From assembly GCA_009694195.1 (NCBI GenBank), contig SHVQ01000004.1, positions 957 to 64,956 on the forward strand: a stretch of DNA of 64,000 bases. Reading direction: 5' to 3'. The number at the start of each line of letters is the position of its first letter. The stretch's first letter is position 1. Source of the stretch: Rhodospirillales bacterium. GTDB taxonomy: Bacteria; Pseudomonadota; Alphaproteobacteria; Rhodospirillales; SHVQ01. The position numbers were made by a program. Shown here piece after piece: positions 21,001-27,000 of the stretch.

Positions 21001-24000
21001 AACGTTCGTCATGTGCGCGCTCGTCGCACTGGCGCTCTTGATGACGCTTAAATATTTCCCCGGGCTCGAGAACCCGGCAGCGTACGCGGGAAACGTTTTC
21101 CAGGCGATTTATCCCGATGCCTTCCCGAACGATCCGTACATCAAGCCGGGGCGGCATCTCTGGGAGAAATCGCTGCAGCTTTCGCTGATGTACCTCCCGC
21201 CGAGGATCATGGGGGAGATCTGGCTTGACGACCGGTTCAACGCACTCGTCTACCTCGGCCTCGTCGCCGCAAGCCTGGTCGGGCTCGATCGCATCGTCCG
21301 CTTCGCCGGTCTCGGCGACGCGCCGTCCCGGTTGGCGATCCAGCTAGTTTTCCTCCGCGACCATCAGATGCTCAACAACAAGGTCTTCTTCGCGCATCAG
21401 GCGGATTTCAATCACGTCGCGTTCGCCATTCCCGTCGTCATCTGGCTCGTTTACGTCACGATTGCGCGGAAAAGCCTGTGGCTTATCTTAGGCCTCTGCG
21501 TTCTCCTGACCCTCGCCTCGATTCGGAACGCGCCGATCGTCATCGCGATGTCGCTCGTCATCGCGGCCGTCAATGGAAGCCGGCGGGACCGGCTGATCAT
21601 CTCGGCGGTGTTCCTCGCGGCGTCCGCGGCGCTCGTTGTGGCGCTCTTCCATATCTTTCCGGTTCCGAAAGCGGATCGCCTGGCGCTATGGGACATCCTT
21701 TACGAGGACCTGACGCCGAGCCAGATGAACCCGTTCGCGCCGGAGCGCACGGTGCCCATGATGATCGTCTGGAACACCATCTTCGTCGCCCTCTGCGGCG
21801 CCGCGCTGCTCGTCCGCGGGCCGGCGACGGAGGGAATGCGGGACTTGCGGCTTTACGTCGGGCTCGGCTTGGCCGTCTGGTTGCTCTGCGGCCTCTATTT
21901 CTCGTTTCCGCCCGATGTCCTGAAATTTCCTCAGCTCCTGCCGTTCACGCCCGTCCGGATTCTTCGCTGGCCGCAAACGCTGGCGTATCTGGCGATTCTG
22001 ATCGCGGTCTTCCACCGGCTGCAGCAGGCGCCCGATATCAAGATGGCGGCGGTTGGTGCGCTGACGGTCGGGATCCTGCTCGCTCTTGGCCCCGAGAATC
22101 TCTGGCAATGGGGATTTGTGTTTGCCGCTTCGCTGCTTTGCATTGCCCTCTGGCATGCGACTGCGAGCATTCGGAATGCCTCCCGCGTTGATACGCAGGC
22201 GGTTTCCACGGCGCTTGCGCGCTCGGCGGCACCGATTCTCATGCAGGCGTTGGTCGTCGCGATCGGAATTTCCTACGGCCTCGCGATCGGCAACCGTCTT
22301 CCGGCGTGGCAGACATGGGCGAAACACGGGGTCATCGGAGATACCGGCTCCGCCACGTGGATCGATATTGCCGAGCACATGCGAAAGACGACGCCCTCGG
22401 ACGCCGCGCTTCTTCCACTTCAGTTCGACCCTCAGGACCCCAGCCGACTCATTGCAACGCGCTATATAGCGACCCGGTCCGGACGCTCGACGTCCGTAAT
22501 CGCCGAGCTCTACTCCATGTACAGTCTTGAGGGCTACCGAACGCAGTTCGAGCAACAGGAGCGCTTCGGGCGCCTGCAAAGAGCCTTCCAGGACATGCGT
22601 TGGGGCGAAGCCGCGAGCATCATTCCAGACCTTCTCCTGGTGCCGGATTACATCCTCATCCCGTCCTCCTTCATCGACGCGAGCGGCGGAAAAATCCAGC
22701 CGTTCTCCGAGCTACGTCGCGTGCGGGCGTATTCCATCCTCAAATATTCCAAGTAACATCACGGCGTTGATGCTAGAAGGGCACGTGGGTCTGTGGTATT
22801 GAGTCGCTTACTCGACCACCTCGGCATTGTGCCGGCGTGCGCGGCGCCGGGAACGGGAATTTCCCGCTACGCCCGGCACAACCGGCCCATTCGCTGATGT
22901 TTTCGTTGGGGGTGCCGTGAAGGTTTGCCTGATTCGCCCGCCGTGCGTGGAGTCGTTCCGTTTCTCGACGACGACAGCCGCCATGCCTTTGGGCCTCGCC
23001 TACATCGCGGCGGCGCTGGAAGCAGCGGGCCGAAAGGTTCACATCGTCGACGCCGTGGCCACGGCCCCGAAGAAGCATACCCGTTACATACGAGGATTCC
23101 TGGTCGGCTTGCGGTTCGACGAGATCGCGGCCCGCATCCCCGCCGATTGCACCGTCGCCGGCCTCTCGGTGATTTTCACCCATGAGTGGCCGGCCATCGT
23201 CCAGTTGATCAAGGCGATCAAGGCGCGGCGGCCGGACATCGCCGTCGTTTTGGGCGGCGAGCACGTCACCGCGATGCCGGAGTTCTGCCTGGCCACGTCG
23301 CAGACCGATTACGTCGTCCTCGGCGAAGGCGAAGAGACCGCCGTTGCGCTGATGGACGCGATCGAGAAAGGGTCGGACCTTGCCCGGCTTTCCAACATCG
23401 CGTTCCGGAAGGACGCGAGCATCGTCGTCAACCGGCGCCAGCCGCGCCGTCGCCCGATCGACGAGATCGCGCCACCCGCCTGGCATCTCTTCGACGTCGG
23501 CGCCTACAACGAGAACGACTTCGTCGGCGGGATCGATATCGCGTCCGTGAGCATGCCGATGCTGGCGACGCGGGGCTGCCCTTACCAGTGCACCTTCTGC
23601 GCGGCCCCCAACATGTGGACGCCGAGCTGGTACGCCCGCGATCCCATCTGCGTCGTCGATGAGATCGAGCGCTACATGAAGACCTACGGCGCCCGCGACT
23701 TCTGTTTCCAGGACTTGACCGCGATCACGCGGAAGGACTGGCTCGTCGCTTTCTGCAGCGAGATCTTGCGGCGGAATCTGAACATCACGTGGCAGCTGCC
23801 GACGGGAACGCGCTCGGAAGCGATCGACTACGAAGTCTCCGACCTTCTGAACCGGACGGGCATGAAGAACATGGTGTATGCCCCGGAATCCGGGTCGGAG
23901 ACCACGCGGCGCCTGATCAAGAAGAAGGTCAAGACCGATCGCCTGATGGACAGCATCGACGCCGCCGTGAATGCCAAGCTGAACGTCGGCATCTGCATGA

Positions 24001-27000
24001 TCGTCGGGCTGCCTCACGACACACCCGAACAGCTGGCGGAAAACCTTCCGTTCCTCCGGAACGTGGCGAAGAGGGGGGTGGTCGATGTGTCGGTCGGTTT
24101 CTACATGGCGCTGCCGGGCACCGAGCTGTTTTACAGCCTCTACGACTCCGGCAAGGTCGTGCTCGACCGCGACTACTTCATCCACATCCTGCACGCAACC
24201 GCGCTGCACCCGTCGAAGACCTATAACGGCTCCTTGAGCAAGCTCACGCTGATCTATTGGAAGTTCCGCTTTTTCTGGTCCTTCTACGCCGAAGGAAAAG
24301 GGTTCTTCCGTTCGATCTGGCGAGGGCTTCAGGGCGCCTTTACGGACTCTCATGACTCGCGGTTGGCGGGAGCCGTCCACAACGCGGTCACGAGCTCCTG
24401 GCAATCGCTGAAGGCTCAGTTCGGGAGGCGGTGGTTGTCGCCCGAGCAGGACCAGGCGATGTTCCGTGAGTGGGATGCCATCTACCGCTCGATCCGAAAA
24501 CATAATCTGGCGGTCGGAGCCGCGAAGATTTCGCCCGCCGACACGACGGAGCTTCATCGAGGCAACGTGATCGACGTGATTCGCCTCAATCACGAAACGC
24601 CGAGACAGATGACCATCAAACCGGACCTTCCTTCCGGCCGGGCCGATCTGCCGCTTGCGGCAACGGCCTGAACGCTGACGACGTCGAGGCCTTCGAGAGG
24701 CCCCAGTGCACGGTCTTCCGCGTCCCATTCTGATCCTTATCAAGGTTTCCATCGCCGCCGGCCTCATCTGGTGGCTGGTCGGCAGCGGGCGGCTCGATCT
24801 CTCCGCGCCGGAGCTGGATCTCGTGAGCCCCTATCTGATCCTCGGCTTCGCCGCCTATCTCGGAAGCATTTTCCCGACGATCGTCCGTTGGCGGCGGCTG
24901 CTCCGCATGTACCGGCTCGAGTTCGGCCTTTGGCGGATCACGCGCTGGATCTGGATCGCCGAGTTTTTCGCCCTCGTGCTTCCCGGCGGAACCGGGGCGG
25001 AGCTGTCGCGCGGCTATTACGTCTACCGCAGCACGCCCGATCTCAAGGCGGCGGCGCTCTCGACCGTGTTCATCGACCGCGTGTTCGGGCTATGGGCGCT
25101 CCTCCTGCTCGGCACGATCGCGTTCGGCATCCTTTACGGAAACGCGCCCGACACGACGGGGCCGCTCGCCTGGGCCGGAGCCGCGACGGCGCTCCTCTTT
25201 GCCGGGACGTCCGCGTTCTTTCTGCTGCTCGGCATCGAGCCCGCCCAAAAGGCTCTCTTGCGGCTCGCAACCGAGCGTATCCGTGAGGTCGTGGAGCCGG
25301 TGACGGCGGTCTACGGCCGTGAGCGCAAGACCATGATCGCCAGCCTCCTGCTGTCGCTGGCCTCCCAGTTGTGCCTGATGATTTCTTTTCTGTGCGCCGG
25401 CTGGATCGTCGGCACGGAGGTCACCTGGATTGCCGTTTTCGCGGCCGTGCCCCTGATCTACATTTCGAATTATCTGCCGATCGCGCCCGGCGGTATCGGC
25501 GTCGGCGAAGCGGCGGCTTCGTTCTTGTTCGCCGCGGCGGGCGTGGCCAACGGCGCCGCCATCATGCTGGTGGTCCGGCTCTGGATCGTCGCCGTCCAGC
25601 TTTCCGGCGGTTTGGTCTATCTTCTGCACCGAGAGCCATCCACAGAGAGGATGGCGAGCGTCGCCGCGCGCTGATCCGGGTGGACTGACGATGATCGAAC
25701 GAATCATGCATGGCGGGCAGCTGCTGGCGATTTTGGTGCCCAGGCGGTTCCGCGAGCCGGGCACGCAGTTCGTCACGTCGCCTGAGTCGGCGATGCAGCT
25801 CGCGGTGATTTTGCACCCGAAAGCAAAGATCATTCAGCCCCACGTGCATAAGCCCTACCCGCGCGAGGTAAGCGAGACCCAGGAGGTCCTCGTCATCACC
25901 AAGGGCCGAATTCGGGTGGATTTCTACGATGACGCGCAGGCTTATCTGGAAAGCCGCGTGCTCGAGGCGGGCGACACGATTCTCTTGATGACAGGCGCGC
26001 ACGGCTTTGAGGTTCTGGAAGACGTGGAGATGATCGAAGCGAAGACCGGTCCCTTTCTCCCGGCCGAGGACAAGACCCGCTTCGCGCCTGTTTCGCCCGA
26101 TCGGGTGAAGTTCAAAAGTTGATGGCGGACTTCATCCCGGTGAACGAGCCGCTGCTCCAGGGCAACGAGCTCGCCTATGTCACCGAGTGCCTGACCAGCG
26201 GATGGATTTCCTCCGAGGGCCGGTTCGTTCACGGCTTCGAGGAGGGATTTTCCGCGCGCGTCGGGCGGCGGTTCGGGATCGGGGTCTCCAACGGCTCGGA
26301 TGCGCTCGAGCTCGCCGTTGCCGCGCTCGGCCTCGGCCCCGGCGATGACGTCATCCTGCCCGCGTTTACGATCATATCCTGCGCAAGCGCCGTGGTTCGG
26401 GCGGGCGCGACGCCGGTGCTCGTCGACAGCGATCCCGTTGCCTGGACGATGGACCCGGAAGCCGTCCGGAAGAAGATCACGTCCCGCACCCGGGCGATCA
26501 TGGCCGTTCACATCTACGGCCTGCCGGTCGATATGGACCCGGTGATGCAGTTGGCCCGCGAGCACGGGCTCAAGCTCATCGAGGACGCGGCGGAGGCGAT
26601 CGGGCTCGCCTACAAGGGGCGCCCGTGCGGAAGCTTCGGCGACATCAGCACCTTCAGCTTCTATGCCAACAAGCACGTGACGACAGGCGAAGGCGGGCTC
26701 GTCGCGGTCGACGACCCAGCGCTCGAGAAGCGCTGCCGGTCGCTCCGCAACCTCTGCTTCGGCGAGGAGCGATTCATCCACCACGGCCTCGGCTGGAACA
26801 TGCGCATGACGAATATCCAAGCCGCGATCGGCCTCGCCCAGCTCGAGAGCCTGGAGCGCGCGATCGAGCGGAAGAAGCGGATGGGCCGGCGTTACACGGA
26901 TCTCATGAAAGACATCGCCGGCATCAAACATCCGGCTGCCGCAACCGCGGGCGCCGAGAACGTCTATTGGGTGTACGGCCTCGTGCTGGACGACGATGTC

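Follow-up and report, generated by a model that had tools for sequence, protein, structure and literature searches.

The stretch of DNA analysed here, 64,000 nucleotides of contig SHVQ01000004.1 from an uncultured Rhodospirillales bacterium (hereafter the window), encodes at 22917..24671 on the forward strand a radical S-adenosylmethionine (rSAM) enzyme of 584 amino acids (aa) with a B12-binding domain. It is the first of four genes in a cassette that also encodes a flippase-like membrane protein, a cupin and a sugar aminotransferase. The open reading frame (ORF) of the rSAM enzyme begins with GTG at 22917, after a GGGGG run resembling a ribosome-binding site, and its stop codon lies at 24671; the GC fraction at third codon positions, 0.84, matches that of other genes in the window, whose overall GC is 65%. 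The NCBI annotation (P0001, 562 aa, "MAG: Rhodospirillales bacterium", MAG denoting a metagenome-assembled genome) begins at ATG 22983 and so omits 22 N-terminal residues (window 22917-22982), which are conserved family-wide and make up the first beta-strand of the Rossmann domain. Because homologues conserve these first 22 residues (…CLIRPP.VE.FRF…), we consider GTG 22917 the better start.

Pfam detects a B12-binding domain (PF02310) at residues 23-145, with 76.7 bits against a cut-off of 32.1, and a Radical_SAM domain (PF04055) at residues 217-375, with 55.5 bits against 29.5. The CxxxCxxC motif for the radical SAM [4Fe-4S] cluster is present in the translation as CPYQCTFC, residues 221-228 (23577..23600, forward strand), and C221, C225 and C228 are invariant across 20 aligned homologues. 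Since these are the only invariant cysteines in that alignment, no auxiliary Fe-S cluster motif is apparent. Pfam, translation and homologue alignment thus all confirm the architecture given in the original prediction, a B12-binding-like N-terminus followed by CPYQCTFC. The AlphaFold2 (AF2) model of the protein is confident (pLDDT 84, pTM 0.87), and its best Foldseek matches are MgmA, TsrM, OxsB, CysS, AprD4 and TokK, with MgmA (9ccb) at the top (1.4e-20, TM-scores 0.56/0.75) and AprD4 at 0.60/0.75. At the sequence level, the N-terminal region aligns with MgmA, TokK, CysS, TsrM and 4q37, whereas the alignment with AprD4 is confined to the radical SAM core. AprD4 and ArsL illustrate that a similar fold can be found without cobalamin (PMC12931638). 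No transmembrane segment is predicted in the rSAM protein, and a conserved aromatic-rich helix, LIYWKFRFFWSFY, occupies residues ~442-459. We conclude that the product is a true radical SAM enzyme of the class B type, predicted from its sequence and model to combine a cobalamin-binding Rossmann domain with a [4Fe-4S]/SAM core.

The three partner genes follow on the same strand. At 24706..25674 lies the gene for a 322-aa LPG_synthase_TM membrane protein (Pfam PF03706, 113.9 bits) with at least 6 hydrophobic segments, for which the flippase-like model TIGR00374 gives 34 bits, below its cut-off. The third gene (25691..26122) encodes a 143-aa WbuC-like cupin that falls just short of the cut-off of TIGR04366 (38.6 bits against 42) and has no significant sequence match in the PDB (best E 0.09). 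Its stop codon overlaps the start of the fourth gene (26119..27240), which encodes a 373-aa DegT sugar aminotransferase (Pfam DegT, 375.7 bits). The best PDB match of this aminotransferase is perosamine synthetase (3bn1/3dr4/3dr7) with 290 bits, the next best reaching 217 bits and ArnB 172-195 bits. By sequence, therefore, the cassette aminotransferase is closest to GDP-perosamine synthase, in agreement with the two genes of the GDP-mannose 4,6-dehydratase (GMD) type alongside. The flippase-like, cupin and aminotransferase neighbours named in the original prediction were all recovered with Pfam and NCBIfam.

We compared the window with related loci. One of these (L088) is syntenic on both flanks yet lacks the rSAM, LPG_synthase_TM, cupin and DegT genes together. 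On its left flank, identities to the window are 71% for a carbamoyltransferase, 72% for a methyltransferase, 51% for an SGNH protein, 74% for a cytidylyltransferase and 48% for a HAD protein. On the right they are 73% for a GMD-like protein, 73% for a C-methyltransferase, 79% for GMD and 65% for a 2-hydroxyacid dehydrogenase. At the junction itself, a membrane-protein gene (48%) is followed after 46 bp by a gene for a family 2 glycosyltransferase (GT2; 58%). All four cassette genes are present and clustered in L001, with the LPG_synthase_TM gene placed before the rSAM gene; identities are 69% for the rSAM protein, 41% for LPG_synthase_TM, 54% for the cupin and 66% for DegT. In L158, the order is that of the window as far as the contig reaches (rSAM C-terminus 86%, LPG_synthase_TM 81%, cupin 85%), and in L085 the membrane-protein gene (55%) is followed by the rSAM gene (80%). 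A tblastn search with the window's neighbouring genes against 82 loci found L001 alone to be syntenic.

The joint presence of the genes in the window, L001 and L158 (within the limits of its contig) and their joint absence from L088 indicate that the four genes are truly gained and lost together. The cassette is an accessory insert between a candidate glycosyltransferase of the GT-C fold and a GT2 resembling dolichol-P-mannose synthase (DPMS) and ArnC. The rSAM gene had been proposed to head an operon, and comparative genomics bears out the four-gene unit but not the start of a separate transcript. No promoter- or terminator-like site was found in the 160-bp gap upstream of the rSAM gene, a scan of 20.5-28.5 kb gave nothing above shuffled background, and all genes from 12277 to 27240 lie on the same strand.

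The gene directly upstream of the cassette (20948..22756, forward strand) encodes a polytopic membrane protein of 602 aa, in which 10 or more hydrophobic segments precede a soluble C-terminal portion. Pfam gives a weak match to DUF2079 (23.8 bits, under the cut-off of 28.2), no significant PDB sequence match was found, and an hhalign comparison with a PMT_2 pair was negative. The top five Foldseek matches of its AF2 model (pLDDT 85) are all GT-C enzymes that use polyprenyl-phosphate-sugar donors, namely ArnT (top), ALG12, AftA (two chains) and STT3, at TM-scores of just 0.33-0.40, and we regard the protein as a likely GT-C glycosyltransferase. Its homologues form a small family of 34 proteins, encoded beside the rSAM gene in L085, L001 and L106 and without it in L088, L089 and L090. 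One homologue, P0149, is fused to a HAD phosphatase domain, and a separate HAD gene lies just upstream of the 602-aa gene in the window (18287-19039), L001 and L088; the fusion and the adjacent genes hint that the HAD and 602-aa proteins work together. L089 lacks the B12-type enzyme and carries, beside NeuB and cytidylyltransferase genes, a SPASM-type radical SAM protein of 459 aa (2788-4167).

On the other side, convergent with the cassette, the reverse strand encodes a small soluble GT2 of 245 aa (27244..27981, Pfam GT2). Over the whole catalytic domain, its best PDB matches are DPMS (5mlz, 1.7e-19) and three ArnC structures, other GT2 structures aligning with the N-terminal half only, and by sequence it is closest to polyprenyl-phosphate sugar synthases. 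It is 58% identical in L001, as in L088. Next comes a GMD-like short-chain dehydrogenase/reductase of 334 aa (28103..29107, forward strand; GDP_Man_Dehyd 348 bits; TIGR01472 gmd 375 bits, cut-off 415). Kept in L001 and L088 at 72-73%, it is probably a paralogue acting as GDP-sugar 4,6-dehydratase or 4-reductase. Farther along the forward strand are a class I SAM sugar C-methyltransferase (30719..31936, Pfam Methyltransf_13/14), conserved in L001 and L088, and a GDP-mannose 4,6-dehydratase (31949..33022, GDP_Man_Dehyd 510 bits) with 79-82% identity in L088 and L001, which presumably supplies the 4-keto-6-deoxy substrate to the aminotransferase.

Our preferred reading, which we put forward tentatively and at slightly less than an even chance, is that the rSAM enzyme tailors a perosamine-type sugar, on GDP or on a lipid carrier, in an Arn-like side-branch pathway, C-methylation being the likeliest reaction. 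GMD would produce GDP-4-keto-6-deoxymannose, the cassette aminotransferase would convert this to a perosamine-type 4-amino sugar, and the 245-aa GT2 would load that sugar onto undecaprenyl phosphate. The rSAM enzyme would carry out a radical tailoring of the sugar, either while it is GDP-linked or after its loading onto undecaprenyl phosphate by the GT2, most probably a methylcobalamin-based methylation of an unactivated sp3 carbon. The flippase-like LPG_synthase_TM protein would carry the lipid-linked sugar across the membrane, and, on the model of Arn, the 602-aa membrane protein would then attach it to the glycan. The combination of a sugar aminotransferase with a polyprenyl-phosphate GT2, by which an Arn-like pathway may be recognised, is provided by the cassette DegT and the 245-aa GT2. 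We favour methylation because every characterised B12-dependent rSAM group includes C-methyltransferases, among them the sugar methylases GenK, GenD1, Fms7 and MoeK5 (PMC12931638).

A more ambitious form of this proposal seems to us possible but doubtful. The enzyme would be the first cobalamin-dependent rSAM protein to tailor a building block of a cell-surface glycan (perosamine-type and possibly attached to undecaprenyl phosphate), its product a C-methylated or rearranged sugar new to O-antigens. Its family, spanning Rhodospirillales, SAR11, Acidimicrobiia, Planctomycetota, Myxococcota/"Deltaproteobacteria", Verrucomicrobiota and Acidobacteriota, would be dedicated to the radical tailoring of lipid-carrier-linked sugars, and abundant uncultured bacteria would then need B12 to build their envelope glycans.

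To place the rSAM protein among known enzymes, we compared its scores with the cut-offs of curated NCBIfam models. The best match is BchE (TIGR02026, residues 22-482) with 160 bits against 481, followed by the Sden_1168 P-methylase (134.6/575), the ladderane enzyme (127/360), HpnJ (TIGR03471, 106/578), HpnR (96.5/650), the MgmA family (80.8/360), the PhpK family (79.8/600), KedN5 (53.6/700) and, over the rSAM core only, AprD4 (NF033070, 34.9/500). Models for GenK, GenD1 and Fom3 were not among the NCBIfam matches. Grouping with a non-methylating clade had been named as an outcome that would count against a methylase. The best profile is indeed that of the non-methylating BchE, but the score is far under the cut-off and the protein joins no characterised clade. 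A role as a hopanoid or bacteriochlorophyll enzyme was rejected, given that HpnJ, HpnR and BchE are all far below cut-off and no hopanoid or bch genes are present in the window. More than 100 B12-rSAM sequence groups have been delineated, most of them unexplored (PMC12931638, a 2026 review).

The top 120 database matches of the protein are ~570-620 aa long, 52-58% identical and cover 96-100% of the query; their names are generic, "BchE" and "YgiQ" being COG-level labels. A pattern scan with one genome per species gave at least 583 relatives. The best 80 of these all come from MAGs or single-amplified genomes, and they are found in Rhodospirillaceae, Acidimicrobiales, Pelagibacteraceae, Planctomycetota, "Deltaproteobacteria", Acidobacteriota and Opitutales/Verrucomicrobia. 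A neighbour-joining tree of the family largely tracks taxonomy, with the window grouping with L085, L001 and L004, and a metagenome scan returned mostly relatives of ~50% identity, L158 alone being close. The rSAM protein thus belongs to a large, cross-phylum and uncharacterised family with identities of ~50-56%. A literature search pairing B12-rSAM enzymes with O-antigen, polysaccharide, undecaprenyl, perosamine or DUF2079 found no paper on it.

Some genomes contain arrays of paralogues, each copy ~50-54% identical to the window protein. In L008 (9506-15016) three tandem copies lie beside a UbiA prenyltransferase, a methyltransferase and two U32 proteins; in L033 (430-13954) GT2, epimerase, AurF-like and PMT_2 genes lie among the four copies, and GT87 follows downstream; and in L029 (9869-14155) two tandem copies are followed by PMT_2. 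A marine Rhodospirillaceae glycan locus (L013, 2463-18939) combines a family member with three distant B12-binding rSAM paralogues, one of which measured ~25% identity, and with GT2, DegT, cytidylyltransferase, HpcH aldolase, GFO oxidoreductase and Rieske protein genes. Members are also present in Pelagibacteraceae (SAR11; L018 9974-11725 and L021 1531-3276), where they adjoin an ATG22-like major facilitator superfamily (MFS) transporter and an AMP-binding enzyme, not glycan genes. SAR11 is generally regarded as independent of B12. Within the 64-kb window, as opposed to the whole genome, no genes for cobalamin biosynthesis or uptake were seen.

We next asked how far the family is linked to glycan genes elsewhere. 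With a GT2 hidden Markov model, the genome set yielded 31 ORFs in 444 kb lying no more than 3 kb from the rSAM gene, compared to 10 in 677 kb at 4-10 kb, an enrichment of 4.7-fold (p = 3e-6). With the metagenome set added, the numbers are 48 in 703 kb and 16 in 863 kb, or 3.7-fold (binomial p = 1e-6). Of the 83 genome loci, 23, drawn from six phyla or classes, have a GT2 gene within 3 kb. In the 124 ORFs that occupy the two closest gene positions to either side, the families that Pfam identified most often were class I SAM methyltransferases (10), GT2 (6) and PMT_2 (4), counts that are lower bounds given that ORF picking is noisy in high-GC loci. De novo clustering of the flanking ORFs gave a GT2 cluster and lineage-specific synteny in Planctomycetota, and nothing more. 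Clear operons for O-antigens or amino sugars are found at several individual loci (L083, L087, L106 and the L033 array). L083/L004 (56%) has GT2, cupin, C-methyltransferase, GMD-like and DegT genes, and L087 (56%) has GT2, rSAM and a 640-aa protein in a Wzt ABC-transporter O-antigen locus. In L106 (54%, 47.6% GC), the order is XylTIM-SDR-…-DegT-rSAM-…-GT2-602-aa homologue (32% identical), the DegT stop overlapping the rSAM start and the GT2 and 602-aa homologue lying downstream. L086 (58%), which reads rSAM-FkbM-GDSL-PMT_2, and the L029 array are likewise clear glycan loci. In Acidimicrobiales, Pfam detects a GT2 fused to a class I SAM methyltransferase (Methyltransf_23) near the rSAM gene in L042 (12416-13843) and L024 (13804-15342); Pfam detects GT2 alone in L046 (8271-9794), and the corresponding genes of L011 and L014 may be fusions as well.

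The original description of such enzymes as no standard component of glycan loci holds, as far as is known, for model organisms, but is too strong for these environmental lineages. No B12-rSAM enzyme is known to take part in making O-antigen, capsule or exopolysaccharide.

Several observations weigh against the preferred reading of a sugar-tailoring methylase. At the level of the pathway, the GT-C assignment of the 602-aa protein stands on its low TM-scores and a sub-threshold Pfam match, and a flippase role is only presumed for LPG_synthase_TM proteins outside MprF. At the level of the family, 57 of the 83 genome loci have no GT2 in their flanks, and some members sit in contexts unrelated to glycans, such as metal efflux (L002), housekeeping genes (L003), the MFS transporter and AMP-binding enzyme of Pelagibacter (L018) and the UbiA and U32 genes of L008. 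The linkage of orthologues to glycan genes, on which the original prediction partly hung, is thus supported by the GT2 enrichment across phyla and the clear operons but does not extend to the whole family, and the conserved family substrate may not be glycan-specific. At the level of the reaction, no curated NCBIfam equivalog cut-off is reached, and the many class I methyltransferases already in the locus leave no evident need for an extra methylase. Moreover, the model resembles methylases (MgmA, TsrM, TokK, CysS) and non-methylases (OxsB, AprD4) about equally, and sequence and fold cannot tell a methylase from a non-methylating member here. This is a general property of the class, in which non-methylating B12-rSAM members are indistinguishable from methylases by sequence or structure (PMC12931638).

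Unlikely, though the likeliest of the rivals, is the same cassette acting on the same sugar with a non-methylating chemistry. The enzyme could act in a DesI/DesII-like manner, the aminotransferase adding an amine that the rSAM enzyme eliminates, with deoxygenation as the outcome; it could dehydrate the sugar as AprD4 does, rearrange a lipid-linked amino sugar or contract its ring in the manner of HpnJ, or catalyse a radical epimerisation. DesI and DesII are a known pair of aminotransferase and radical SAM enzyme that works on an NDP-4-amino-6-deoxy sugar, and the tight coupling of the rSAM gene to DegT, with the two reading frames overlapping in L106, would suit such a pair. That AprD4 is among the best structural matches, that the best profiles include the non-methylating BchE, ladderane enzyme and HpnJ, and that the locus is already rich in conventional methyltransferases point the same way, as does the precedent of HpnJ, whose substrate is a lipid-linked glucosamine that a GT2 produces (PMC12583986). 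However, DesII and AprD4 do without cobalamin, whereas the window protein has a strong B12-binding match and at its N-terminus resembles cobalamin binders instead of AprD4. HpnJ, AprD4 and BchE all score far under their cut-offs, and characterised B12-rSAM enzymes are mostly methylases (PMC12931638).

Two further readings take the sugar out of the reaction altogether, and for the window's clade we consider both less likely, though either may apply to the stand-alone family members. The rSAM enzyme might modify the polyprenyl carrier, or another isoprenoid or membrane lipid, the glycan context then reflecting a shared use of polyprenyl phosphate; we judge this distinctly unlikely. It would account for the polyprenyl chemistry common to the neighbours (the DPMS/ArnC-like GT2, GT-C/PMT_2/GT87 proteins, LPG_synthase_TM, and UbiA with the U32 pair in L008), for the mostly stand-alone position of family members, as expected of a housekeeping lipid modifier, and for the conserved aromatic-rich helix. 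Several B12-rSAM enzymes do methylate isoprenoid lipids, for example HpnP and HpnR (PMC12931638, PMC12583986). Yet the genes that accompany it in the window's clade encode a perosamine-synthase-like aminotransferase and a cupin and no lipid enzymes, in L106 it lies inside an amino-sugar operon, and the protein lacks a predicted transmembrane segment. Moreover, no bacterial undecaprenol carrying a methylation or other radical modification is known. It is very unlikely that the function is unrelated to glycans (modification of a cofactor, RNA, protein or small metabolite) and the position in the island incidental. The ~54% identical members in the unrelated contexts of L002, L003 and L018 and a tree that follows taxonomy, like that of a vertically inherited housekeeping gene, are what such a function would predict. 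The four-gene presence/absence polymorphism, the clustering retained despite the rearrangement between window and L001, a linkage to DegT, GT2 and the 602-aa family that recurs independently in distant organisms, and the GT2 proximity enrichment all speak against it.

The surroundings of the cassette agree with the glycan context of the original prediction. From ~0.3 to 54.4 kb, the window is one glycan island of ~54 kb. It encodes NeuB, a NeuC-like epimerase, two cytidylyltransferases and an ABC exporter; a carbamoyltransferase with SxtJ-like and DUF5989-like partners, SGNH/AlgX-like proteins, a HAD phosphatase and a xylose-isomerase-like TIM barrel; FkbM and other methyltransferases and two GMD-type enzymes; and AsnB, a heparinase II/III-like protein, GT1, GT2 and GT4 glycosyltransferases and a WbpM/PglF-type dehydratase. 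The two SAM-dependent C-methyltransferases noted earlier are both present, with Methyltransf_13/14 domains at 30719-31936 and 45597-46889. The island has three small GT2 proteins (245, 246 and 262 aa) and, besides the 602-aa protein, a second large polytopic membrane protein, which is PMT_2-like and ends at 41481. This PMT_2-like GT-C protein, the 246-aa GT2 and an epimerase form a lipid-carrier-type module at ~39600-43214, and the second C-methyltransferase is accompanied by the 262-aa GT2 at 45597-47683, so that the glycan may bear several side-branch decorations. At 11713-14070, the SxtJ-like gene, a DUF5989-like membrane peptide of ~50 aa (12099-12263, TTG start) and the carbamoyltransferase form a trio that recurs in L088, L089 and L090, suggesting a conserved O-carbamoylation module. 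An ORF at 16881-18266, with a weak GDSL/SGNH match, would overlap the preceding cytidylyltransferase by ~80 bp if it starts at 16881 (the start is uncertain); a tblastn search of L001 and L088 gave no equivalent.

The class of the rSAM enzyme is known, but this variant is uncharacterised and its context is new and testable. Its predicted substrate class is a GDP- or undecaprenyl-phosphate-linked perosamine-type sugar, and the cassette offers a natural presence/absence control, with the window, L001 and L158 on one side and L088 on the other. The family spans environmentally abundant but uncultured lineages. If the sugar-tailoring reading is right, surface glycans would gain a new tailoring reaction, and the structure of the envelope in marine and soil bacteria would be linked to the availability of cobalamin.

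Among known systems, BchE, the anaerobic Mg-protoporphyrin IX monomethyl ester cyclase of the "BchE-like" mega-group, provides the top curated profile and the name that several sources give to homologues of the rSAM protein; the match stays far from the cut-off, and the window has no bacteriochlorophyll genes. DesI/DesII resembles the cassette in pairing an aminotransferase with an rSAM enzyme, and AprD4 in its two-domain fold, but neither DesII nor AprD4 uses cobalamin, and AprD4 matches the window protein over the rSAM core only.

The sugar methylases GenK, GenD1 and Fms7 (aminoglycoside) and MoeK5 (moenomycin) share the B12-binding and radical SAM architecture. The first three methylate amino sugars and MoeK5 a lipid-linked saccharide, at carbons closed to class I methyltransferases (PMC12931638). 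In keeping with this amino-sugar setting, the window gene adjoins a sugar aminotransferase, so that the likeness is one of architecture and context. Those enzymes belong to actinomycete secondary-metabolite clusters, whereas the window gene lies in a surface glycan island of an uncultured Rhodospirillales bacterium.

In the hopanoid cyclitol ether pathway (HpnI-HpnK-HpnJ), a GT2 places an amino sugar on a lipid, and the B12-binding rSAM enzyme HpnJ rearranges the lipid-linked sugar (PMC12583986). The window differs in having no HpnL or HpnI model matches, no hopanoid genes and a low HpnJ score, and its sugar would be a GDP-derived 6-deoxy-4-amino hexose where that of the hpn module is GlcNAc. 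The hpnL gene probably encodes a membrane protein of the LPG_synthase_TM type, and the trio of GT2, B12-rSAM and LPG_synthase_TM would in that case be common to the hpn module and the window.

From the Arn (PmrHFIJKLM) pathway, which has no radical SAM enzyme, the window is set apart by an aminotransferase nearer to GDP-perosamine synthase than to ArnB. ArnA, ArnD and ArnE/F are not among its annotated genes, and an LPG_synthase_TM protein is present instead. What the window and the Arn pathway appear to share is the overall scheme: a DegT aminotransferase, a GT2 predicted to place the sugar on undecaprenyl phosphate, a flippase step and, with the 602-aa protein as a candidate, transfer by a GT-C enzyme.

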